Source of the DNA: Escherichia phage Eps7
Sequence record: NC_010583.1
Strand: one strand, 5' to 3'
DNA length: 64,000 nt
Shown here in pieces: positions 1-12,286 of the stretch (position 1 is the first letter of the stretch; every line of letters starts with the position of its first letter). The notes under the pieces were generated by a model. The model searched no databases. It saw only the letters and a list, made by a program, of their open reading frames with translations, and was not told the DNA's origin. Position numbers and translations under genes: made by a program.

Positions 1-182
1 ATATACTCAGCTTGGATGTAATAATCAGGTACATGATCTTTTGGCAGATTCTTGTTAGTATCATGAACCTCAGCTCTAGCTTCTTCTTCAGAATCAAAAC
101 CACGATACCAGATTTCACCACCCCAGCCACGTTCACTTTCGGTATACTTAACAATGTGTTTCATAAGGTTTTCCTTATTAGT

Positions 183-272
183 TGGAGGAAGGTAATGGAG
201 TCGAACCATCACCATATCGCTACAGCGGGCAGGTTTTCAAGACCTGTTACATACCACTATGTCCTACCTTCC
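183..272 (-). tRNA. tRNA-Ser (anticodon UGA, type II; tentative)
   Basis: Reverse-complement T-arm (aatgg/agtcgaa/ccatc), acceptor halves ggaaggt/accttcc, anticodon hairpin caggt-tttcaag-acctg, long variable arm, encoded CCA (TGG 183-185). Confidence 0.6.
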
Positions 273-279
273 AGTTGTT

Positions 280-370
280 TGGCGGAAGAAGAGAGATTCG
301 AACTCTCAAGCCGTTTTACCAGTCAGCCACTTTCCAAGCGGTTTTCGTCACCTAATCGATTTGCTCTTCC
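280..370 (-). tRNA. tRNA, type II (possibly Ser, anticodon GGA)
   Basis: T-arm gagag/attcgaa/ctctc, acceptor ggaagaa/ctcttcc, long variable region, loop tttccaa in imperfect anticodon stem. Confidence 0.5.
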
Positions 371-544
371 GTAGATCTCAGGATTAAATCATAAACTTCA
401 TTAGCGGATACTGGAAGTATGAGATTATACATCTTTTGGTCATACCTCTGACCATACTCTATAAACACATACTCTTTAGTTAATGTATTAACAGCTAACC
501 AGATATCAGTTATAGGAGTTTTCATCATGAGTTAATCCAATGTT

Positions 545-625
545 TGGTAGGGATGGAGGGACTCGAACCCACACCCGAAGACTAGAATCTAAATCTAGCG
601 CGTCTGCCAATTTCGCCACATCCCC
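545..625 (-). tRNA. tRNA (anticodon UAG? Leu-like with short variable arm; uncertain)
   Basis: T-arm gaggg/actcgaa/cccac, acceptor agggatg/catcccc, perfect hairpin ctaga-atctaaa-tctag. Confidence 0.5.
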
Positions 626-632
626 ATTTTAT

Positions 633-851
633 TTAGTTAGAAATAAATAATAATCCCGCAACAATGGAACCTACGCCACTGAACACCATTATCAGCATAG
701 CTTCTAAGCTGATAAAGCGGACAGTATATGGAGCGCCCCAAGAATAATCAGTAAAGAAAGTTTTCTTTTCTTTAGCTAAATCTTTAACAGTTCTAAAATA
801 GATAGCTAGTGCTAAAGCTGCAAGAACTATAGAGGCTGCTAAGAATACCAT
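633..851 (-). CDS. small hydrophobic membrane protein (72 aa)
   Basis: ORF with two predicted TM-like hydrophobic stretches; position between tRNAs. Confidence 0.35.
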   Translation of the reverse strand: MVFLAASIVLAALALAIYFRTVKDLAKEKKTFFTDYSWGAPYTVRFISLEAMLIMVFSGVGSIVAGLLFISN

Positions 852-870
852 ATTATTTCCTTAATTTGTT

Positions 871-946
871 TGGTGGAGTCACTCAGAATTGAACTGAGTT
901 CCACTGCTTGCAAGGCAGTAAGTTTAACCAAATAACCTATGACCCC
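871..946 (-). tRNA. tRNA-Ala (anticodon UGC; tentative)
   Basis: T-arm ctcag/aattgaa/ctgag, acceptor ggagtca/tgacccc, anticodon hairpin actgc-ttgcaag-gcagt. Confidence 0.6.
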
Positions 947-952
947 GAATTT

Positions 953-1031
953 TGGTGGAGAATAACGGAATCGAACCGTTCTGATGTCCTCGGTGCAAGC
1001 GAGGTGTCCACTCCATGCAGACCCATTCCCC
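953..1031 (-). tRNA. tRNA (anticodon also reads UGC; identity uncertain)
   Basis: T-arm aacgg/aatcgaa/ccgtt, acceptor ggagaat/attcccc, hairpin cctcg-gtgcaag-cgagg; 7-nt variable loop. Confidence 0.5.
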
Positions 1032-1040
1032 AAAATTTAT

Positions 1041-1304
1041 TTATTCTCTATACATATCGAGAACAGTTGCTACAATCTGAGCTTCTAGCCTAGCAATATC
1101 TTTATTCACTATATCAGATTCTACTACTAAGTGATTATATATTGCTTCAGTTTTAGCAAGATCTACATCAGATAGTTTATTAAGACTATTATAATACTTA
1201 GCATTATTGCAACGTTTCTTCATATCGGAAACTCGTTTATGGAGTGTTCTTTGTTGATAACGTTGTGACATTAGTTTCTTAGCCATATCTTTCAGATCAA
1301 ACAT
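1041..1304 (-). CDS. hypothetical protein (87 aa)
   Basis: ORF downstream of a ~230-nt leader from the promoter cassette at 1545-1592. Confidence 0.4.
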   Translation of the reverse strand: MFDLKDMAKKLMSQRYQQRTLHKRVSDMKKRCNNAKYYNSLNKLSDVDLAKTEAIYNHLVVESDIVNKDIARLEAQIVATVLDMYRE

Positions 1305-1544
1305 GGATATTCCTTCTAGTTTACTAAGGCTATTAGCTCGGTGTGCGTATTACCCTCAGACATTAGCCAGTAGAGGATAATCGCTCTTCACAAACCCGAT
1401 ACACTATTCAGTTGCCGCTGAATCTAGCGGACTAATCTAGAACTTCTCCCGAGTCGTAGGGATCGTGCTTTTTTGGCAGCCAGTCCTAGGTCGAGCTAAT
1501 ACCTTAGTGAACTTTGATGAGGATTTCTCCTCATCAATTTATAT

Positions 1545-1592
1545 AAATATTATAACAAGAAATTAAGCATCAAGCAAGTACATTTTTAGCGA
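1545..1592 (-). promoter_or_regulatory. T5-type early promoter cassette (sigma70-like)
   Basis: On minus strand: A-rich UP, -35 CTTGCT, 17-nt spacer, -10 TATAAT, conserved leader ATTTATATAAATTGATGAGGAG. Confidence 0.55.
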
Positions 1593-1929
1593 TTTCTTGT
1601 AGTTCCTTAACGTCGCTAACGAAAAGGTAATCAGAGCTTCCAGAGTGCATACTCTGCATAACCACACCACCATCCGGTGCATCTTCTTTCAGTGTGATAC
1701 CTAACCAGAACTCGGCAAAACTAGGTGTTACCTCACCTTGACTTGCCTTGAACACATCGCCTTCTGTGATCTCTTGACCAGTGGAGAGTCCCATGTATGG
1801 TACGTTCAGATCAATATCTTTGTAGAACTCAGCTAGATCTTGCTCGAAATCCCAACCTTTAGAGATAGCGAACTCCATTGTTACATGACCGAAATAGCCT
1901 TGAACCTTGCTTGATAATTGCATTTGCAA
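1570..1929 (-). CDS. hypothetical protein (119 aa)
   Basis: ORF, protein-like composition. Confidence 0.5.
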   Translation of the reverse strand: MQMQLSSKVQGYFGHVTMEFAISKGWDFEQDLAEFYKDIDLNVPYMGLSTGQEITEGDVFKASQGEVTPSFAEFWLGITLKEDAPDGGVVMQSMHSGSSDYLFVSDVKELQEIAKNVLA

Positions 1930-1948
1930 TTCCTTATTTTGAGTTAAT

Positions 1949-2021
1949 TGGTACTCGGTGATAGAATCGAACTATCGCAACCGCCGTGTAAAGACGGGGT
2001 TCTCCCATTAAACTAACCGAG
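1949..2021 (-). tRNA. tRNA-Val (anticodon UAC; tentative)
   Basis: T-arm gatag/aatcgaa/ctatc, acceptor actcggt/accgagc, anticodon arm ccgcc-gtgtaaa-gacgg. Confidence 0.55.
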
Positions 2022-2026
2022 CAATT

Positions 2027-2104
2027 TGGTGGATTGCCTGGGATTCGAACCCAGAACTGACGGATTAAAGGTCCGCTACTCTTATCCAGTTGAGCTAGCA
2101 ATCC
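2027..2104 (-). tRNA. tRNA (anticodon not resolved; possibly Lys UUU)
   Basis: T-arm ctggg/attcgaa/cccag, acceptor ggattgc/gcaatcc perfect; anticodon arm ambiguous. Confidence 0.5.
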
Positions 2105-2490
2105 AATTTTTCTACTAATAATTTAAAAGCATCTAGTACAGGTACTTCAAACCATTCTCCAGATACTCTATAATCTTTAAGAAGATTATGTAATTCTTTC
2201 TCTGTACGTCTTTTATCCGACGAAAATCTGAAATGGTATAGCTTGTAGTCTCTATTAGGTGAATAAGTTTGATAACTTGTTAACCTCTCATTCACATCTA
2301 TAGTCATACCTATTTTATACATGCCTGGCCATGCTGGATTACCAATTACATATACAAAACCTTCCGTTATAGGTATTTTATGCTCCCTTTTATACTTTAA
2401 GAGATTTAAGGCTGCCATTCGATAACAGAATCTAAACTCTGAAGTTTTTAACTTACCTTCTTTACCTGAAATTTCGTTATATTTGCTCAT
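2095..2490 (-). CDS. GIY-YIG-like (T5orf172-type) domain protein
   Basis: Motifs GFVYVIGNP...YKIGMT...R...Y...E resemble the GIY-YIG/T5orf172 nuclease fold; embedded in tRNA cluster. Confidence 0.5.
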   Translation of the reverse strand: MSKYNEISGKEGKLKTSEFRFCYRMAALNLLKYKREHKIPITEGFVYVIGNPAWPGMYKIGMTIDVNERLTSYQTYSPNRDYKLYHFRFSSDKRRTEKELHNLLKDYRVSGEWFEVPVLDAFKLLVEKLDC

Positions 2491-2556
2491 ATAAGCTCTT
2501 ATGAGCTTATCATCTATAATGAAGTTATCAGGAAGGTTTAAGGCAGCTAAAAACTT

Positions 2557-2721
2557 TATTAATTAGCATAGACTTCCTTAATAGAATAAACTTTTAAGTT
2601 AAGGTGATTAATACCAAATTCCGCCATCACTTCGTTTTCATCTTTACCGTAATGGGCTAGTGGATACTTCTTACGATCTTTGCTAGAACGTAGATCACTT
2701 ACTTTTAAACGAAATAATTTC
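2557..2721 (-). CDS. hypothetical small protein (54 aa)
   Basis: ATG-initiated ORF MKLFRLKVSDLRS... found by manual translation; below the 60-aa ORF-track cutoff. Confidence 0.3.
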
Positions 2722-2743
2722 ATTTCGAAATCCTTCTATTAAA

Positions 2744-2820
2744 TTGGAAGCGGGTGCAGGAATCGAACCTACCTCTTTCTAGCTTATGAGACTAGCGATC
2801 TCTACCAGAGATCTAACCCG
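2744..2820 (-). tRNA. tRNA with CAU anticodon (Met or Ile-lysidine; tentative)
   Basis: T-arm gcagg/aatcgaa/cctac, acceptor agcgggt/acccgca, anticodon arm ctagc-ttatgag-actag. Confidence 0.55.
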
Positions 2821-2827
2821 CAATTGT

Positions 2828-2906
2828 TTGGTCTCCGTGGGAGGATTTGAACCCCCCGACCCTATCGCCCCAAACGAAACGCTCTGGCCAAACTGAGCTA
2901 CACGGA
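2828..2906 (-). tRNA. tRNA-Pro (anticodon UGG; tentative)
   Basis: T-arm ggagg/atttgaa/ccccc, acceptor ctccgtg/cacggag perfect, D-arm gctc...gagc, loop ccccaaa. Confidence 0.55.
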
Positions 2907-2934
2907 GAATATTCTTTGTTAACTCACTTTATAA

Positions 2935-2992
2935 ATATATTATACAGAGAATTAAGCTAAATAGCAACTACATTTTTAATAAATTTACTTAT
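2935..2992 (-). promoter_or_regulatory. T5-type early promoter cassette driving tRNAs at 2744-2906
   Basis: RC shows -35 GTTGCT, spacer, -10 TATAAT, conserved leader; tRNA begins about 30 nt downstream. Confidence 0.55.
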
Positions 2993-3212
2993 TAGGTAAG
3001 TCACCGAGCTATCAACTCATGCTAGCGAAAGTTTGCGAGACCTTCTTTAAGTACTAGAACACACCCGCCGATGTGTCGGACTTACTTAATAAGTAAACTT
3101 TCGTTTACTTACACCTACCTGGTCGGGAGGATTTTCAGCGACTAGAACCGGCCGGAAACTCATCGCCTTGTTTATCTAGGAGTCCGTTCTCTAGGAAGCA
3201 GAAACCTAAATT

Positions 3213-3287
3213 TGGTGCGGTCGGAGGGAATCGAACCCTCAACTTCTGGTTGGCAACCAAAAAATTATACCTTTTAACTACGAACGC
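3213..3287 (-). tRNA. tRNA-Gly (anticodon GCC; tentative)
   Basis: T-arm gaggg/aatcgaa/ccctc, acceptor gcggtcg/cgaacgc, anticodon arm tctgg-ttggcaa-ccaaa. Confidence 0.55.
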
Positions 3288-3295
3288 ATAATAAG

Positions 3296-3500
3296 TCAAT
3301 CTAGGCAGGACTTGAACCTGCTATCACTTGTGCGGATTTACGAGAACCATTCTTTCACTCGAATCGAACGAGCTTCTACCCTCGGCAAGCTGGTGTCCCC
3401 TCTCCACCACGCTAGAATGATAATTAATGCCTGCTCCTTTGAATCAAGAAGTCCACCCCGGACTTTGGGTCTTTGCAGTACATCACGCTGCTCTGATGTT
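3296..3500 (-). other. tRNA-like elements (T-arm hairpins without complete cloverleaf); possible tRNA pseudogenes or small ncRNA
   Basis: Two strong T-arm-like hairpins (gcagg-acttgaa-cctgc at 3306-3322; actcg-aatcgaa-cgagc at 3357-3373) but no matching acceptor stem found by eye. Confidence 0.3.
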
Positions 3501-3576
3501 TGGTACACCCACTAGGACTTGAACCTAGAACCCTCCGCTTAAGAGGCGGTAGCTCTAACCATTGAGCTATGGATGT
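3501..3576 (-). tRNA. tRNA (possibly Lys, anticodon CUU)
   Basis: T-arm ctagg/acttgaa/cctag perfect, D-arm gctc...gagc, acceptor acaccca/tggatgt, loop ttaagag. Confidence 0.5.
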
Positions 3577-3654
3577 ATTATTATGTTTTGCAGTGCTCTA
3601 AATATAGACACTTCCCACGCGGTGGTTATCTATACCAGCGTCCTGCAAAAATTG

Positions 3655-3731
3655 GCGCGACCGATGGGATTCGAACCCACATTTTCTCCCGTGACAGGGG
3701 AGTACCATTACCAAGCCAGCCCCGATCGCAT
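3655..3731 (-). tRNA. tRNA-Asp (anticodon GUC)
   Basis: T-arm atggg/attcgaa/cccac, acceptor gcgaccg/cgatcgc, perfect anticodon arm ctccc-gtgacag-gggag. Confidence 0.65.
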
Positions 3732-3752
3732 AATTTATTTACTCAGTTTTGA

Positions 3753-3936
3753 GTTTTTCGATAGCTTCCTCAACCTCTTTTAGAGCTTCACGACGGGCAT
3801 TCTGTTGCTGCATATCTTGAATTAATGTCAGTTTTTGTTTTTAATTTCTTGATCCCAAACCTTAATATTATTAATCAGACTATCACGATCAGCTTCTAGT
3901 CGAGCAATTGCACGAGTTGTCATATCTATTTCCTCA
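3753..3936 (-). CDS. hypothetical small coiled-coil protein (about 60 aa, apparent frameshift)
   Basis: Two short adjacent ORFs (MTTRAIARLEADRD... and ...MQQQNARREALKEVEEAIEKLKTE) join across an A5CA5 tract; manual translation only. Confidence 0.25.
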
Positions 3937-4025
3937 GTTATTAATGAAAATGGTATCTGTGACTGAATTCAATATCAGTAATGATAGCTGGTTGGCTACC
4001 GGTTTACTTAACTCTACACAGAATA

Positions 4026-4108
4026 TGGCGGGCCGTGTAGGATTCGAACCTACGTTGTCTTTCGACATGGATTAACAGTCCACCGCCAAACCGCTTGGCT
4101 AACGACCC
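4026..4108 (-). tRNA. tRNA with 13-nt variable arm; anticodon reads GUU (Asn?)
   Basis: T-arm gtagg/attcgaa/cctac perfect, acceptor gggccgt/acgaccc, anticodon arm atgga-ttaacag-tccac, variable hairpin gtc-tttc-gac. Confidence 0.5.
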
Positions 4109-4115
4109 TAAAATT

Positions 4116-4191
4116 TGGACGACCGCATGAGATTCGAACTCACATAAGGAGGTTTTGCAGGCCTCCGCCTAAGCCATTCAGCCAACGGTCG
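4116..4191 (-). tRNA. tRNA-Cys (anticodon GCA; tentative)
   Basis: T-arm atgag/attcgaa/ctcac, acceptor cgaccgc/acggtcg, anticodon arm gaggt-tttgcag-gcctc. Confidence 0.55.
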
Positions 4192-4369
4192 AGTTATCTT
4201 GCTTTTCGAGATTAGTAAACTCTAGATCTTTAGAATGTCCTATAGATCTAGCATAATAGCCATCTCCAGCATCATAGCCTGACTTACCACACTCACACAT
4301 CTTAAACTCTCTATAACGAGTGAAAATATGTTCAGAACCACAACACTTAAATTTAACTAACATTTTCAT
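4178..4369 (-). CDS. Cys-rich small protein (63 aa), putative zinc ribbon
   Basis: KFKCCGSEH...CECGKSG cysteine pattern; 3' end overlaps tRNA by about 14 nt. Confidence 0.4.
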   Translation of the reverse strand: MKMLVKFKCCGSEHIFTRYREFKMCECGKSGYDAGDGYYARSIGHSKDLEFTNLEKQDNSTVG

Positions 4370-4608
4370 TTAACACGCTCCGGTAAATCTTCGAGTTTAT
4401 ATTGAGTAGCCACATTAGCAGCATCTAGTAACAAACCCATATGTTTAAGAATCCTAGTGATAGCTTCGCCTTCTGCTTCTTCTACAAAAGTGCGTAGTTG
4501 AATGAAGTCAATACCACCATCCATACCAGAGAAAATGTTAAGTAAGCGAAGCATTACCAGCTTACGTTCTTTTAATTCTTGTTCTGCCATGTTGCTTCTC
4601 CAGTTCAA
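4366..4608 (-). CDS. hypothetical protein (80 aa)
   Basis: ORF directly downstream of promoter cassette 4625-4672; ATGA overlap with next gene. Confidence 0.45.
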   Translation of the reverse strand: MNWRSNMAEQELKERKLVMLRLLNIFSGMDGGIDFIQLRTFVEEAEGEAITRILKHMGLLLDAANVATQYKLEDLPERVK

Positions 4609-4624
4609 TTTATGTAATAATTAT

Positions 4625-4672
4625 ACAGAACTTTAAGGATTTAAGCAACTACATTTTTCAGAAATTTGATGC
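4625..4672 (-). promoter_or_regulatory. T5-type early promoter cassette
   Basis: RC: -35 GTTGCT, -10 TATAAT, conserved leader. Confidence 0.5.
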
Positions 4673-4928
4673 CTTTCTTTTTCTTCTTATACTTCCACGT
4701 TAATGGATTCTGTCGATTATGAACGCTTGAGATCTTTGTCTCGTCAAATTTCTTCAATACCATGTAATCACACGCCAACTGCTCTAGTGGAATGGTTTCT
4801 CCATCAAAAGCATAAACATAAGGCTGTTGACTAGCACGATAATGATAGACTTTGTTAACTCTACGTTTCAGCGACTTATCCGCGCAGTAAATAAAGAAGT
4901 TTTCAGGATGCATCAGCATCTCCTTCAA
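4641..4928 (-). CDS. hypothetical protein (95 aa)
   Basis: ORF; lysine-rich C-terminus overlaps the downstream promoter cassette. Confidence 0.4.
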   Translation of the reverse strand: MKEMLMHPENFFIYCADKSLKRRVNKVYHYRASQQPYVYAFDGETIPLEQLACDYMVLKKFDETKISSVHNRQNPLTWKYKKKKKGIKFLKNVVA

Positions 4929-5011
4929 ATTGGTGCAACCTGTACGTAACGATCGTACCTCTTCTCCTTTTCAGGGAGACGCTAATCCATCTCAGCTAAA
5001 GTCGCAAATAT

Positions 5012-5088
5012 TGGCAAACCTACTAGGACTCGAACCTAGACCGTACGGTTTTGGAGACCGACATGCTGTCCAGTAACACTCTAGGAAT
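5012..5088 (-). tRNA. tRNA-Trp (anticodon CCA; tentative)
   Basis: T-arm ctagg/actcgaa/cctag perfect, anticodon arm acggt-tttggag-accga; acceptor pairing imperfect. Confidence 0.5.
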
Positions 5089-5096
5089 GCAGAAAT

Positions 5097-5172
5097 TGGC
5101 GTCCTGTGCGGGGATCGAACCCGCAAATCCTACCTTGAAAGGGTAGTGACTTTACCAGTTTGTCTAACAGGA
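5097..5172 (-). tRNA. tRNA-Glu (anticodon UUC)
   Basis: T-arm gcggg/gatcgaa/cccgc, acceptor gtcctgt/acaggac perfect, anticodon arm ctacc-ttgaaag-ggtag perfect. Confidence 0.65.
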
Positions 5173-5180
5173 CTTAAATT

Positions 5181-5271
5181 TGGTGTTGGATGATGGAGTC
5201 GAACCACCCGAGACCCTTCCGAGTCGGCAGATTTACAGTCTGCTTCGCTACCTCTACGATACTAATCCAAC
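5181..5271 (-). tRNA. tRNA-Tyr (anticodon GUA, type II)
   Basis: T-arm gatgg/agtcgaa/ccacc, acceptor gttggat/atccaac perfect, anticodon arm gcaga-tttacag-tctgc perfect, long variable arm. Confidence 0.65.
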
Positions 5272-5416
5272 ATATTTGAATGAAAAATAAGTCGGTTAAA
5301 CTCAAGGTGGAATATTTCAGGAAATCCTGACTTTACCCCTAAAAGCAACTCGCTTAGTTACTTCTCATTCAGATATGTTTTCCAAATTAGATAACTATTA
5401 TATCAAGTTTTGAAGG

Positions 5417-5452
5417 ACTGAGCAAGTCAAATTTTAAAGAACTTGCTCAGTG
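5417..5452 (-). terminator. intrinsic terminator hairpin (11-bp stem)
   Basis: actgagcaagt ... acttgctcagt inverted repeat immediately downstream of the 5462-5737 gene. Confidence 0.45.
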
Positions 5453-5461
5453 CTATATCAG

Positions 5462-5737
5462 TTACTCGAAGCTAGGAGTGACACTCAGTTTGAATGGAAG
5501 CTCGAACACTTCTTCATAATCATCATTGAGCGTAATTACACGACCTTCTAGCTTAGTCATGGTGATTTCGATATCAGCCTCTGCATCAGGAGCCATACCA
5601 GCTTCCACACATTTAGCTTTGACTTCCGGCAGAAGTTCTACATCGTAGAAATAAAGCCATTCAATCTCACCTTCCCAGCCACCCCAGGATTTACAAACAG
5701 CACTTTCAACACCAGTTGCAGTAACACGTTTTGACAT
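5462..5737 (-). CDS. hypothetical protein (91 aa)
   Basis: ORF downstream of promoter cassette 5775-5815. Confidence 0.5.
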   Translation of the reverse strand: MSKRVTATGVESAVCKSWGGWEGEIEWLYFYDVELLPEVKAKCVEAGMAPDAEADIEITMTKLEGRVITLNDDYEEVFELPFKLSVTPSFE

Positions 5738-5774
5738 TCGTTAACTCCTTCATCAATTTATATAACTATTATAG

Positions 5775-5815
5775 CAGAAATCTTAAGTAAAAAGCAAGTA
5801 CATTTTTAAAATTTC
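5775..5815 (-). promoter_or_regulatory. T5-type early promoter cassette
   Basis: RC: -35 CTTGCT, -10 TATAAT, conserved leader. Confidence 0.5.
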
Positions 5816-5827
5816 TGCTTGGAGGAG

Positions 5828-6034
5828 TTAAACTCCTGATTCTTCAGCCAGATCAAGCCCAACCAACGTGATTGCCATAATAGCCGCGCCATGTTCTTTC
5901 TCTCCTAGCTCTTTGGCTTGAGTGAGAATATTTAGGAACTGCTTTTGAAAATCTGCAACTTCTTCTGTCATGCCTGCTTCAGCAATAATTCCTTTCAGCA
6001 TAAAGCGTTGTGCCGTAATTTCAGGATTAGCCAT
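5828..6034 (-). CDS. hypothetical protein (68 aa)
   Basis: ORF. Confidence 0.45.
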   Translation of the reverse strand: MANPEITAQRFMLKGIIAEAGMTEEVADFQKQFLNILTQAKELGEKEHGAAIMAITLVGLDLAEESGV

Positions 6035-6185
6035 TTATTATCTCCAGTTATTTAGAATGTAAGCCAAACTTAGGATCATAGCGATCGTAAGTCGTACCAT
6101 TAGTTGAAGCCTTGATGCTATGAAAACGACAGTACATAAATTTACGTAGTGCTTTCTTAATAGCTTTCATTTTATTTCCTTAATT

Positions 6186-6262
6186 TGGTAGGGGTGGTGG
6201 GATTCGAACCCACAAAACCTGAATTTTAAGTCCAGTACCTATGCCAATTCGATTACACCCCC
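6186..6262 (-). tRNA. tRNA (anticodon reads UAA, Leu-like but type I; uncertain)
   Basis: T-arm gtggg/attcgaa/cccac perfect, acceptor aggggtg/caccccc, anticodon arm ctgaa-ttttaag-tccag. Confidence 0.5.
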
Positions 6263-6280
6263 ATGTAATCTTAGCGAATC

Positions 6281-6603
6281 TCTAAACCCTGGAAATATCG
6301 AGGGAATGGAGAGCCAACTTCAAAATTGATGCCCCAATTAAGTTCAACGAGTTCAGATTTATTAAGATCTAGGCCATTACCTTCAAAGATATAGCCGTAA
6401 ACCGCAGGGAACATAGCTGCTAGATCTTCCATATCGGAATGAGCATTGTGTTCTTCACGGAACTGCTCAACTCTTCAATAGAACTTTTCTAGGAGACTCA
6501 GGTACGATGAACGTTACCACATCAGTAGAATCATCGGTACGATACACCGTAGCTTGGAACAAGCCAACACCTAAAAGGTTTATTGCCGGAGTAGTAAAAA
6601 TAT
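6281..6603 (-). CDS. hypothetical protein (about 107 aa, apparent +1 frameshift near 6470)
   Basis: Two sub-threshold ORFs (MDIFTTPAINLLG... and ...EQFREEHNAHSDMEDLAAMFPAVYGYIFEGNGLDL...) in adjacent frames. Confidence 0.3.
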
Positions 6604-6608
6604 CCATC

Positions 6609-6794
6609 TTAGCCTCGCTCAATGTCTAGACAAATTGCATATTCAGGGTTGATACCAGTACCTTTACATGTAGGACATTCCCATTCTCTACAGAAAATAT
6701 CCCCAGGTTCTGCATCATCCTGCCTACCACTACCATGACAGTCCTTACACCGACATTCTTCTAATGCTTTCTTCATTTCATAGAATCTAGACAT
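6609..6794 (-). CDS. DnaJ-type zinc-finger mini-protein (61 aa)
   Basis: Two CxxCxGxG motifs (CKDCHGSG, CPTCKGTG) plus additional Cys pairs. Confidence 0.45.
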   Translation of the reverse strand: MSRFYEMKKALEECRCKDCHGSGRQDDAEPGDIFCREWECPTCKGTGINPEYAICLDIERG

Positions 6795-6811
6795 ATAGTC
6801 TCCTAGTTAAT

Positions 6812-6889
6812 TGGTGGCTCCCGGAGGATTCGAACCTACCTACCTTTCGCTTATGAGGCGACGGCTCATACCAAATGAGCTTGAGAACC
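6812..6889 (-). tRNA. tRNA with CAU anticodon (Met or Ile-lysidine; tentative)
   Basis: T-arm ggagg/attcgaa/cctac, D-arm gctc...gagc, anticodon arm ttcgc-ttatgag-gcgac. Confidence 0.55.
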
Positions 6890-6894
6890 AAATT

Positions 6895-6988
6895 TGGAGG
6901 AAGATGCCAGATTCGAACTGGCACACCGTGTCTCCACAGCTACTGGCTGTTTAGCAAACAGCTCCCTTACCTTTAGGGTTAATCTTCC
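6895..6988 (-). tRNA. tRNA-Ser (anticodon GCU, type II)
   Basis: T-arm gccag/attcgaa/ctggc perfect, acceptor ggaagat/atcttcc perfect, anticodon arm gctgt-ttagcaa-acagc perfect, long variable arm. Confidence 0.65.
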
Positions 6989-6999
6989 GAATTTATGAA

Positions 7000-7045
7000 T
7001 ATATTATACAGAAAATTTCGGCATTAAGCAAGTGAAATTTTACTG
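7000..7045 (-). promoter_or_regulatory. T5-type early promoter cassette driving tRNAs at 6812-6988
   Basis: RC: -35 CTTGCT, -10 TATAAT, conserved leader. Confidence 0.5.
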
Positions 7046-7336
7046 AACATTGCACTGATATACTTGTTTGATACGTGTCACTGACTTCTTAGTTGGGTTG
7101 ATAGAAGAACCCTGCCACCAACGTGATTCTGAGCTGAGAACAGCCCCAGGAACAGCTTGTTCTTTTGGCAGAACAATATCAAAACACTGTTCACCCATAT
7201 TATCTTTAATGTGCGACCAAATGTCTAGAGTAAATCGTTCTAGCTTATTACAAACTTGAACTTGACAAAGTTCCTGTTGTGGAGCAGCAAATACAGAAGT
7301 AGATACTAGAGTCAATGCAAGTACAATGCGTTTCAT
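7040..7336 (-). CDS. secreted/periplasmic protein with signal peptide (98 aa)
   Basis: MKRIVLALTLVSTSVFA signal peptide then Cys-containing mature part; the ORF-track MREESN prefix is read-through of the conserved leader. Confidence 0.5.
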   Translation of the reverse strand: MKRIVLALTLVSTSVFAAPQQELCQVQVCNKLERFTLDIWSHIKDNMGEQCFDIVLPKEQAVPGAVLSSESRWWQGSSINPTKKSVTRIKQVYQCNVQ

Positions 7337-10633: not shown

Positions 10634-10709
10634 TGGCCGAGGTGACAGGATTCGAACCTGCATAAAGGAATTTAGAAGACTCCTGCCTATCCCTTAGACT
10701 ACACCCCGT
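10634..10709 (-). tRNA. tRNA-Arg (anticodon UCU; tentative)
   Basis: T-arm acagg/attcgaa/cctgc, acceptor cgaggtg/caccccg, anticodon arm ggaat-ttagaag-actcc. Confidence 0.6.
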
Positions 10710-11791
10710 TTAGGTATTTTTAAGAACTCTTATAAAAGCTCTTAAAGATACCCGACGGTAGGTAGGGTCAGCCCCCTCAGATTAAGCTCTGCAGCCCTTC
10801 CGTCAGACAATATCTTCCAGTTTAAGTCAGGGTGACTTTGTGGTTATGTTCTCCGTATGTGAAGAACTCGGTTAGGCTTAGGTCATGACTCCCAGCCTAC
10901 TGCTGCCACTCAACAGGAATTATCGCGAATTACCTGTACTATTGGGCACCATTAGTGACATCTCTCATGTCAGCGTTTCCCACTCTCATATTCACGCGGT
11001 CTGTTAGAATCGCACCTCCGATTTTCGATGCGAAGCTGGATGCCTAGTCTCAGGTTAAACGGGGCACACACTAGGCAGTGATCCCGAGTTCCGAGTTTGG
11101 TTGAGGCCGTCAGGTTTCCTCGTGGTTTAGCTGTTTCGATTCTAACCTAATACTGATCAGGTGGCGTACCTCCTGAACCGTCATAGTATGTACTCCAGCA
11201 GCGAATGCTTATCCGGTATAAGCCCGAGTTATCCGATTCTTTCCAGAAGGAGCAGTAAAGCTCAATGTCAGCCTGTGAGCATCTGGCAGTGTTATCACAT
11301 AAGTCAGTTCGACACCCCACATTTTAGTGCCTGGTAGATCCCGAATGAAGCCCTCAGTCGTTAGACCTCCATCATTCATCAAAGATTTACGCTACCCACT
11401 ATTCGATGGACAATCGCCGCATTGTGGTATACATACGTTTTCACTTGCATCCTAGACGGGTCAGCGTTGAAAGTTATATGGGTTTCTCAAGCCCAACCTT
11501 CAGTCTTCTACCCCTGGGACACGCACCGTATTTCACACTGTGCCTAGCTCCTGTTGAGACCCATCGTTTTGTATAAATTAGAGAAGAGTTTAGAGGAGAG
11601 GTTTCAGACGCCTCATTTTACAAGAAGTCTCGAACCTATATTCGTTACTCTAGTCACTTGGCCGGATATACCGGACTGGACTCGGAACTCTAACAGGTGA
11701 TCATTCTTAACCCACCGACTCTATTCAGTGTCAGAAGCTATCACTAGGTGAATCGCTAAAGCTCACTCAGCGTAATCGGCTCGCTGTTCTC
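10710..11791 (-). ncRNA. candidate large structured non-coding RNA (about 1.05 kb), co-transcribed with tRNA-Arg
   Basis: No ORF of 60 aa or more in any frame over about 1.1 kb; stops dense in all frames; GC visibly higher than flanking genes; conserved promoter cassette at 5' end, tRNA at 3' end. Confidence 0.3.
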
Positions 11792-11842: not shown

Positions 11843-12286
11843 TTAATTAAATTCGCCAGCAACCTGAGCAGCAATGCCACCATCGTAACGACCAGGAAAC
11901 TCTTCCTTAATCGCTTTCATCAGCATACCCTTTGTAATCCCAGGATTCAACTTAACTAATTCTGCAAAGTATTTGCGAATCTCAGAATCAGATAACTGAG
12001 GCGGCAGATACTGTTGTAGCCATTTGTTCAGTATATATTCATACTGAGCAGACTGCAAGCTATAATTATCAAGGTCTTGACCGTGAAGTTTAGCTTTTGT
12101 CTGATTAATGCTTTTCAGTTGAGCTTTTAGATAAGATACAAACTGTTCAGAAGTAATGAAGTCTTTATCAACACGCTGAAGATCTCCGATTATAGTCTGG
12201 TAGCTTTTAGCTACTTCTTTATCAGAACCATCAACCTTAGATTCCTGCAAAGCCCTACGCAAAACATCTAGAATATTCTCTTCCAT
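11843..12286 (-). CDS. GatB/YqeY domain protein
   Basis: 147-aa protein with YqeY-like C-terminal motif NPGITKGMLMKAIKEEFPGRYDGG. Confidence 0.55.
   Translation of the reverse strand: MEENILDVLRRALQESKVDGSDKEVAKSYQTIIGDLQRVDKDFITSEQFVSYLKAQLKSINQTKAKLHGQDLDNYSLQSAQYEYILNKWLQQYLPPQLSDSEIRKYFAELVKLNPGITKGMLMKAIKEEFPGRYDGGIAAQVAGEFN

Follow-up and report, generated by a model that had tools for sequence, protein, structure and literature searches.

The 64,000-nucleotide stretch of Escherichia phage Eps7 DNA analyzed here (NC_010583.1; the window, in whose positions all coordinates are given) carries a cluster of transfer RNA (tRNA) genes, seven of which had been flagged in a first-pass annotation for repeated anticodons or atypical variable regions. 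Comparison with other phage loci shows that the odd bodies are conserved and, as judged from their sequences, selected lineages: a tRNA-Asn with a variable hairpin, shrunken or armless tRNA-Leu, and a non-canonical tRNA-Ala beside a canonical one of another phage lineage. Taken together, the flagged genes are genuine tRNA genes, probably transcribed and functional with standard charging; they would supply codons to the phage, and their reshaped bodies would be poor substrates of defence nucleases.

Bases 1–7200 of the window are 97% identical to Escherichia phage PSa2 (Demerecviridae, Epseptimavirus) and match 610 T5-like phage records; these matches place the window in the tRNA-rich region of a T5-like Epseptimavirus phage. 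ARAGORN finds 21 tRNA genes in the window, all on the minus strand and each with an encoded CCA end. The tRNA-rich region itself (183–7031, minus strand) holds 20 tRNA genes among small open reading frames (ORFs) and stable-RNA homologues, in the gene order of PSa2 and T5. The cluster is already under way at the window start; PSa2 has 8 further tRNAs upstream, a third CAU tRNA included. Within the cluster, the tRNA strand carries six promoters of T5 type (TTGCT-N17-19-TATAAT), at 1549–1577, 2939–2967, 4620–4648, 5397–5425, 5768–5797 and 7003–7031, and this motif occurs 22 times in the window against 0.19 occurrences expected by chance. A generic scan of the same DNA for sigma-70 promoters and terminators gave a result no better than that for shuffled sequence.

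The anticodons named in the first-pass annotation are all reproduced by ARAGORN, and the predictors gave no others: Ala-UGC at 871–946 (76 nucleotides, nt) and 953–1031 (79 nt), CAU at 2745–2822 and 6812–6889, Asn-GUU at 4026–4108 (83 nt), Leu-UAG at 545–625 (81 nt) and Leu-UAA at 6186–6262 (77 nt). Only one coordinate shifted, the first CAU gene having been placed at 2744–2820; the second is as described there, though it lies beyond the range 871–6262 to which the description was assigned. Six of the seven genes score 40–59.6 bits with the Rfam tRNA model (E from 1e-5 to 4e-11). Segmentation also bears out the variable regions read by eye, which are 13 nt in tRNA-Asn, 9 nt in Leu-UAG and 5 nt, the type I length, in Leu-UAA. 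Errors of by-eye folding, offered at the time as one explanation of these departures, are excluded because three independent methods (ARAGORN, the Rfam tRNA model and free-energy folding) agree with the original folds. The alternative, genuine departures, finds support in covariation: all 4 pairs of the Asn variable hairpin and 11 of 23 pairs of the 79-nt tRNA-Ala carry compensatory changes. Pseudogene status of the flagged tRNAs was considered and rejected on covariation and conservation.

The 83-nt tRNA-Asn(GUU) (Asn-83; 4026–4108, minus strand) has a class-II-like body. It is predicted by ARAGORN, scores 59 bits with the Rfam tRNA model, encodes CCA, and has G73 and a G1:C72 pair. Its 7-nt anticodon loop, CUGUUAA, contains U33 and A37 as in bacterial tRNA-Asn, and its anticodon arm is one base pair away from that of asnT, one of the Escherichia coli K-12 reference tRNAs used for comparison (asnT, leuW, leuZ, alaT, metZ, metT and ileY). 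The variable arm (4054–4066, minus strand) consists of a 3-base-pair (bp) stem GUC/GAC, a GAAA tetraloop and an unpaired AAC. It totals 13 nt, compared with 5 nt in asnT and 4–5 nt in bacterial tRNA-Asn, a class I tRNA, so that a base-paired arm of class II size (more than about 10 nt) stands here on an isotype outside the class II set of Leu, Ser, Tyr and Sec. Folded by minimum free energy without a tRNA model, the gene forms a five-arm cloverleaf, one arm being the variable hairpin (z = -2.3). Across 20 aligned relatives, the variable helix is paired in 100% of cells and its support by compensatory changes equals that of the canonical arms.

The Asn-83 sequence is identical in 13 of 17 T5-like loci and also in phage SP15; a second variant in the T5-like loci has C:G for U:A in the anticodon stem, a compensatory change. 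Asn-83, the 77-nt tRNA-Leu and the 79-nt tRNA-Ala all have identical or near-identical counterparts in two laboratory phages, SP15 and Bas32, the latter being phage IrisVonRoten. BLAST against phage genomes reveals full-length relatives of 83–87 nt in unrelated phages (Jiaodavirus, Phapecoctavirus, Novosibvirus and a Pseudomonas jumbo phage), and the groups with a long-arm tRNA-Asn comprise Demerecviridae, Straboviridae, Stephanstirmvirinae and a Pseudomonas jumbo phage. The same search against all complete E. coli genomes returned chance-level matches only (E about 1). A scan pattern was built from the Asn anticodon arm followed by a long gap ahead of the T loop. It matches at least 120 stretches in a viral-contig collection and 15 in 100,044 bacterial and archaeal species genomes (one genome per species); of the 15, most belong to dense phage-like arrays of tRNA genes and one is a tandem-duplication artefact. 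Long-arm tRNA-Asn is thus a large phage-borne family, common in phages of several families and nearly absent from bacteria.

In the viral loci ARAGORN finds long-arm tRNA-Asn in 89 distinct sequences, whose acceptor stems vary widely. Of the 89, 72 fold a variable hairpin with 3 bp or more, capped by a GNRA loop in 52 of these 72, and G73 occurs in all 57 members that encode CCA. On several viral contigs a class I and a long-arm tRNA-Asn stand side by side. Four bacterial contigs from genomes or metagenome-assembled genomes (L163, L160, L155 and L164) contain dense arrays of 12–29 tRNA genes, each with a long-arm tRNA-Asn, and resemble phage or mobile tRNA arrays that were binned together with cellular genomes. 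Other over-long tRNAs occur there as well: Lys(UUU) of 90 nt, Ile(UAU) of 93 nt and Glu of 89 nt in L163, and Gln(CUG) of 85 nt in L160. An origin of Asn-83 from tRNA-Tyr by anticodon shift was considered, since the 13-nt GUC/GAC arm resembles that of E. coli tRNA-Tyr. It was not adopted for the window gene, in view of the Asn-like anticodon arm and G73; the D arm is not diagnostic. For a subgroup of long-arm tRNA-Asn with a CCCGAG...GGG D arm, a Tyr origin is possible.

The two tRNA-Leu genes depart from their class in the opposite direction. According to a 2023 review, tRNA-Leu has a long arm everywhere except in animal mitochondria (PMC9976931). The 77-nt tRNA-Leu(UAA) (6186–6262, minus strand; ARAGORN; Rfam 57.4 bits) has a variable loop of only 5 nt, GUUUU, together with A73, a G1.U72 pair and a D arm of Leu type, with a 3-bp stem and the 11-nt loop GAAUUGGCAUA. 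It is near invariant in 14 T5-like loci, occurs at 99% identity or more in 291 phage records, and is identical in SP15 and Bas32. In the 81-nt tRNA-Leu(UAG) (545–625, minus strand; ARAGORN; A73), the 9-nt variable region TCTTCGGGT forms a minimal UUCG-capped hairpin; ARAGORN assigns its first T to a sixth anticodon-stem pair. Both regions fall short of the 13–15 nt found in E. coli tRNA-Leu. The D arm of Leu-UAG is one base off that of E. coli leuW, the D loops being AAAUUGGCAGA in Leu-UAG and GAAUUGGCAUA in Leu-UAA, against AAAUUGGUAGA in leuW and GAAUCGGUAGA in leuZ.

E. coli LeuRS requires A73, A15:U48, G18G19 and A20a, and the long arm is dispensable (PMC9976931). Both short tRNA-Leu genes carry these elements in their Leu-type D arm, and the variable region of each is closed by a U which can pair with A15. 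Across T5-like phages the alleles in the Leu-UAG slot measure 85, 83, 81 and 77 nt, corresponding to variable regions of 13, 11, 9 and 5 nt. In the viral loci 55 of 131 tRNA-Leu are 76 nt or shorter without CCA, with all Leu anticodons represented and the Leu-type D arm and A73 kept, a frequency that is indicative only because the loci were selected for carrying long-arm tRNA-Asn. Some of the tRNA-Thr(UGU), Ile, Trp and Cys genes tabulated for the same viral loci also bear a long arm.

The two tRNA-Ala(UGC) genes are, by sequence, of different lineages and not recent duplicates. The 76-nt gene (871–946, minus strand; ARAGORN; Rfam 59.6 bits; G3:U70, A73) is a canonical cloverleaf. It is conserved in 152 phage records at an identity of at least 99%, and the tRNA-Ala of Felixounavirus phages matches it at about 81%. 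The 79-nt gene (Ala-79; 953–1031, minus strand; ARAGORN) also has G3:U70 and A73; G8 and G9 replace the usual U8, and the D stem is extendable to 6 bp and the variable loop counts 7 nt, as against the 4-bp stem and 5-nt loop of a canonical core. Its free-energy fold is a cloverleaf with the same 6-bp D stem and 7-nt variable loop. Ala-79 falls below the Rfam tRNA gathering score and gives only a weak tRNA-Sec match (23.6 bits); a homologue in a Klebsiella phage was called Ala-UGC by tRNAscan-SE 2.0 with a score of 41.0 (GenBank note).

Members of the Ala-79 family are spread across Demerecviridae (366 phage records cover at least 80% of the gene), and in several Tequintavirus relatives this is the sole tRNA-Ala. 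In seven members from Escherichia, Salmonella, Klebsiella and Proteus phages the helices are paired in 100% of cells and G3:U70 is present in 7 of 7; the unusual G8, G9 and 7-nt variable loop are conserved within the family. AlaRS requires G3:U70 alone, and this pair is kept in all eight Ala-UGC sequence types of T5-like phages. The second Ala slot of PSa2 holds another tRNA-Ala type, of 74 nt. T5-like phages have at least five tRNA-Ala(UGC) lineages, and the Ala slot therefore behaves like an exchangeable cassette.

For the two CAU tRNAs, the first-pass view that Met and Ile identities cannot be told apart from sequence proves too pessimistic. The 78-nt gene at 2745–2822 (minus strand) is 100% identical to T5t14, the 'initiator tRNA fMet' of T5, which in T5 is located next to tRNA-Pro. 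It has a U1.U72 mismatch, G2:C71, C3:G70, G4:C69, A11:U24 and U73 instead of A73. The unpaired 1:72 position, the three following acceptor pairs and A11:U24 agree with E. coli metZ, and the unpaired 1:72 with G2:C71 and C3:G70 are formylation determinants; A11:U24 follows from the D stem GAUC/GAUC, whereas the elongator metT has C11:G24. Position 1:72 is never paired in variants of this gene, being U.U, or C.U in two relatives. The anticodon stem CUAGU/GCUAG retains only G30:C40 of the three consecutive initiator G:C pairs (29–31:39–41), for which reason the gene is termed initiator-like rather than initiator; the lack of the other two would predict weak discrimination by IF3. Other initiator-like CAU tRNAs whose U1 is unpaired come from a T4-like Klebsiella phage (L031, 136–212) and a Proteus T5-like phage (L028, 392–468), the Klebsiella one with all three anticodon-stem G:C pairs and U73; in phage initiator-type tRNAs an unpaired U1 seems to recur.

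The other 78-nt CAU gene (6812–6889, minus strand) is tRNA-Ile2-like. It is 86% identical to T5t23, the tRNA-Ile2(CAU) of T5, and occupies the same place beside tRNA-Ser(GCU). Compared with E. coli ileY and metT, it has A73, A37, A38, U12:A23, C29:G41 and G30:C40, and C29:G41 is kept through compensatory anticodon-stem changes among the window gene, T5 and locus L014. The TilS determinants in E. coli are the acceptor-stem pairs C4:G69 and C5:G68; at these positions the window gene has C5:G68 but U4:A69, as in tRNA-Met. The gene would be expected to need lysidine at C34. The third CAU tRNA, just outside the window, is an elongator tRNA-Met.

With regard to charging, the specialised decoding once suggested for these genes finds no support, the identity elements for standard amino acids all being present. 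The tRNA-Asn would be charged with Asn through its GUU anticodon and G73, which together define Asn identity (PMC9976931). Charging of the tRNA-Leu genes with Leu could proceed through A73, A15:U48 and the G18G19/A20a layout of the D loop, and that of the tRNA-Ala genes with Ala through G3:U70. The CAU pair would provide one initiator-like tRNA and one lysidine-dependent tRNA-Ile2 charged with Ile. Since the elements read by host synthetases are kept, normal decoding is most likely.

The codons used by the phage fit this set of tRNAs. CUA makes up 16% of phage Leu codons and AGA 20% of Arg codons, as against 5% and 7% in a host sample of 6.5 thousand codons from one unrepresentative region. 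CUA, AGA, GUA and CCA are used by the phage two to three times as often as in that sample, and codons with a matching tRNA in the window are enriched relative to it (p = 0.036). GCA and GCU together account for 81% of phage Ala codons. Supply of codons that the AT-rich phage favours over its host is modestly supported.

The altered bodies themselves probably serve to evade tRNA-cutting defence nucleases, by analogy with phage tRNAs of known effect. Such nucleases would deplete the matching host tRNAs, and reshaped bodies, above all in the variable region, would be poor substrates for them. T5 counters PARIS with its tRNA-Lys, tRNA-Thr and tRNA-Asn, and the T5 versions rescue infection; tRNA-Asn(GUU) is a documented PARIS target (PMC12409363). 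The PARIS nuclease AriB reads the anticodon-stem sequence and U16-U17 of the D loop, and a U16-to-C16 change in tRNA-Lys impairs its cleavage (PMC12409363). At position 16, Asn-83 has C and E. coli tRNA-Asn has U. In SP15, the longer variable loop of tRNA-Tyr is required to counter Retron-Eco7 (PMC12673091), and the tRNA-Tyr, Asn-83, 77-nt Leu-UAA and initiator-like tRNA of the window are identical to those of SP15.

Several points weigh against this explanation, the narrow host codon sample among them. Asn-83 retains U36-A-A-U-C-C41, which is weakly cut by AriB in E. coli tRNA-Asn. We know of no enterobacterial nuclease that targets tRNA-Leu or tRNA-Ala. Since LeuRS does without it, the Leu arm may just have been lost through a tolerated deletion. 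SP15 tRNA-Asn gave no rescue from PrrC170, a nuclease targeting tRNA-Lys. Finally, although the PARIS-sensitive T5 relative Bas34 encodes a tRNA-Asn, it needed that of T5, a tRNA-Asn different from Asn-83, to escape PARIS (PMC12409363), which counts against a role specific to PARIS.

A more general form of the evasion hypothesis is that phages systematically break the class I/class II rule of tRNA as counter-defence, which is put forward only tentatively. The Asn family would have gained a GNRA-capped arm, and the smaller tRNA-Thr(UGU), Ile, Trp and Cys sets would have done likewise. The Asn arm would be placed beside the AriB cut site between positions 40 and 41, on the 3' strand of the anticodon stem, and could act as a nuclease block or as a decoy. 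Phage tRNA-Leu, conversely, would have shed its long arm, depriving nucleases that cut variable arms of their target. A more extreme version, in which charging of some of these tRNAs follows body shape and hence recodes codons, is much less likely.

Codon supply could also be the whole function, the odd bodies representing neutral drift tolerated since the synthetases concerned ignore the variable region. The codon preferences given above (CUA, AGA, GUA and CCA enriched; GCA and GCU at 81% of Ala) are as this would predict, and the stepwise shrinkage of the Leu arm over alleles, 13, 11, 9 and 5 nt, suits it as well. AlaRS looks only at G3:U70 and LeuRS has no need of the long arm. AsnRS reads the anticodon and G73 (PMC9976931). 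Drift nevertheless leaves unexplained the gain and upkeep of a mostly GNRA-capped Asn hairpin in 89 sequences from several phage families, with compensatory changes, as well as the near-absence of the long-arm Asn pattern in cellular genomes. The occurrence of class I and long-arm tRNA-Asn on the same contigs is likewise hard to reconcile with codon supply alone, and a role of the variable loop has been proven for the neighbouring tRNA-Tyr (PMC12673091). Drift with codon supply alone is regarded as unlikely.

Another possibility is that the arm and other odd features are handles for a phage-encoded partner, such as a tRNA-binding or processing factor, or that the tRNAs titrate nucleases as decoys rather than shield themselves. 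Over-expressed viral tRNAs possibly inhibit AriB by competition (PMC12409363), and PtuAB toxicity is neutralised by over-expressed tRNA-Tyr. A candidate partner is the YqeY-like ORF at 11843–12286, which adjoins the cluster and whose positional counterpart in T5, T5.081, is labelled 'tRNA amidotransferase'. Its YqeY match lies below the Pfam cutoff, however, and long-arm tRNA-Asn is spread over many unrelated phages; a dedicated partner or a decoy function is regarded as improbable.

The least credible alternative is recoding, in which a class-II-shaped tRNA-Asn would be charged by the shape-reading SerRS, TyrRS or LeuRS and AAC/AAU would partly specify another amino acid. The G1:C72, G2:C71, G3:C70, C11:G24 and G73 of Asn-83 overlap what we take to be the Ser identity set of E. 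coli, and the variable arm is like that of E. coli tRNA-Tyr (13 nt, GUC/GAC stem). In nematodes, Leu is indeed attached to class II tRNAs that bear Gly or Ile anticodons (PMC3333845). This alternative is nonetheless highly implausible, given that GUU and G73 form the full transferable Asn identity set (PMC9976931), that G73 is constant in the 57 CCA-encoding long-arm members, most of which start with U1 as bacterial tRNA-Asn does, that the anticodon arm of Asn-83 is almost identical to that of E. coli tRNA-Asn, that a 3–4 bp arm is shorter than Ser arms and the A73 needed by TyrRS and LeuRS is absent, and that AAC and AAU occur at ordinary frequencies in the window ORFs.

The proposed evasion of defence nucleases by tRNAs that would decode normally can be set against several known systems. 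The T5 cluster (NC_005859; T5t01–T5t25 and stable RNAs) resembles the window in gene order, strand and promoter type, in homologues of RNA2H, RNAIV, RNA2, RNA3 and RNAX, and in CAU tRNAs 100% and 86% identical. It differs in having one tRNA-Ala (75 nt), another tRNA-Asn of 78 nt without the hairpin, no tRNA-Leu(UAA), an 85-nt tRNA-Leu(UAG) with a full arm, and a tRNA-Lys(UUU) only 74% identical to that of the window, where C33 is found. Among nuclease-resistant phage tRNAs (tRNA-Tyr of SP15 and T5 against Retron-Eco7 and Septu PtuAB; T5 tRNAs against PARIS AriB), SP15 shares the four identical tRNAs named above with the window; the tested T5 tRNA-Asn, in contrast, is of the 78-nt type and escapes via anticodon-stem changes, whereas Asn-83 is of the hairpin type.

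Nematode V-arm tRNAs (nev-tRNAs, PMC3333845) likewise combine a class II shape with anticodons of class I amino acids. Their identity is Leu and they mis-decode, while the phage tRNA-Asn has the full Asn set and would be expected to decode normally; the two belong to different domains of life and are of independent origin. Armless tRNA-Leu of animal mitochondria and engineered E. coli versions (PMC9976931) also keep A73 and the tertiary contacts between D loop and T loop, which suffice for leucylation in E. coli. The short phage tRNA-Leu differ from them in being natural, used in the bacterial cytoplasm and equipped with a bacterial Leu-type D arm. Allo-tRNAs (PMC5389517), some of them phage-borne, have non-canonical bodies that rely on acceptor-stem identity (Ser, Ala). 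Their acceptor/T-stem branch is 8/4 or 9/3, unlike the standard 7/5 branch of Ala-79, in which it is the core that is altered (G8, G9, extended D stem and 7-nt variable loop).

Other tRNA genes of the cluster also depart from the usual forms. The 91-nt tRNA-Tyr(GUA) (5181–5271, minus strand), the one identical to SP15 tRNA-Tyr, has a 17-nt variable arm. The 78-nt tRNA-Lys(UUU) (2027–2104, minus strand) has the anticodon loop CCUUUAA, with C33 in place of the near-universal U33, and also C16 and C41. The C33 allele is common to PSa2, JN-S202001, L007 and Bas32; other T5-like phages have CUUUUAA. PrrC presumably cuts tRNA-Lys at position 33/34, and C33 may, from its location, be a PrrC escape change. 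AriB cleavage is impaired by three substitutions, to two of which C16 and C41 correspond (PMC12409363). In tRNA-Phe(GAA) (4931–5005, minus strand) the T loop AUCGUUA has A54 and U58 swapped relative to the usual U54/A58. Its acceptor and anticodon stems are unlike those of the PSa2/T5 allele (UUCAAUU), making it another exchangeable allele of the cluster. The tRNA-Trp(CCA) (5012–5088, minus strand) has two U.U mismatches in a row in its acceptor stem, at 2:71 and 3:70, and its Rfam score is only 36 bits; PSa2 has the same sequence.

Upstream of the window start, an 87-nt tRNA-Thr(UGU) allele replaces the 75-nt one in five T5-like loci (L005, L008, L011, L012 and L015). Its variable arm is 15 nt long (GGA-GYAA-UCC) and its D arm class-II-like; tRNA-Thr(UGU) is a prime target of PARIS AriB. 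Just upstream of tRNA-Ser(UGA), a tRNA remnant (273–345, minus strand) consists of an intact T arm GAGAG-UUCGAAU-CUCUC, a 3' acceptor strand, G73 and CCA, with no matching 5' acceptor strand. Its position is that of tRNA-Ser(GGA) in T5 and some relatives, and it is probably a truncated tRNA copy.

The non-coding gaps between tRNA genes are filled by homologues of T5 stable RNAs, on the same minus strand: RNA2H (1388–1501, 95%), RNAIV (3029–3080, 81%), RNA2, 'tRNA-like' (3295–3419, 90%), RNA3, 'putative tRNA-like' (3951–4023, 95%), and RNAX (10709–11320). Between tRNA-Lys and the initiator-like tRNA lies an ORF of 131 amino acids (2095–2490, minus strand) with T5orf172 and MUG113 domains (56.5 and 66.8 bits), its 3' end overlapping the first 10 bases of tRNA-Lys. 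We take these domains to belong to the GIY-YIG-like nuclease group, and by its domains the ORF probably encodes a homing endonuclease, of a type by which this region is shuffled. The 147-amino-acid ORF beside the cluster (11843–12286, minus strand) has a weak Pfam YqeY match (25.4 bits, E = 1.7e-5, under the cutoff of 27); T5.081 and the YqeY-domain gene of PSa2 are its counterparts by position and annotation only. YqeY domains bind tRNA in GatB and some GlnRS enzymes, and the ORF could, on this similarity, be a helper for the unusual tRNAs of the phage.

In the GenBank record of Salmonella phage JN-S202001 (L003, OL502173), Ser(UGA) is mislabelled 'tRNA-TERM', Ala(UGC) 'tRNA-Cys' and Tyr(GUA) 'tRNA-Val'. 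The reading of 'tRNA-TERM', 'tRNA-OTHER' and 'tRNA-Cys' labels as suppressors or alternative folds was rejected, at least the JN-S202001 labels coming from an anticodon translated like a codon; such an error could be taken for suppressor tRNAs.

The T5 cluster itself has long been known, and automated pipelines annotate such genes routinely. In bacteria, the long variable arm is reserved for Leu, Ser and Tyr tRNAs (plus Sec), according to textbooks and the 2023 review (PMC9976931). A full-text literature search found no description of variable-arm tRNA-Asn or class I tRNA-Leu in phages, within a searchable library only and hence without proof of novelty. The flagged tRNAs are apparently an instance of a broader, under-described phage tRNA pattern, and of the tRNA-Leu genes in the phage tRNA arrays sampled, about four in ten are class-I-sized. 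Such genes can be mis-scored by isotype models that were trained on cellular tRNAs, and Rfam misses Ala-79. If the shapes are anti-nuclease adaptations, they would offer a simple marker, readable from sequence, of which host tRNAs are under attack, and natural designs for nuclease-proof tRNAs. They could also explain the broad host ranges of tRNA-rich phages such as the relatives of T5.

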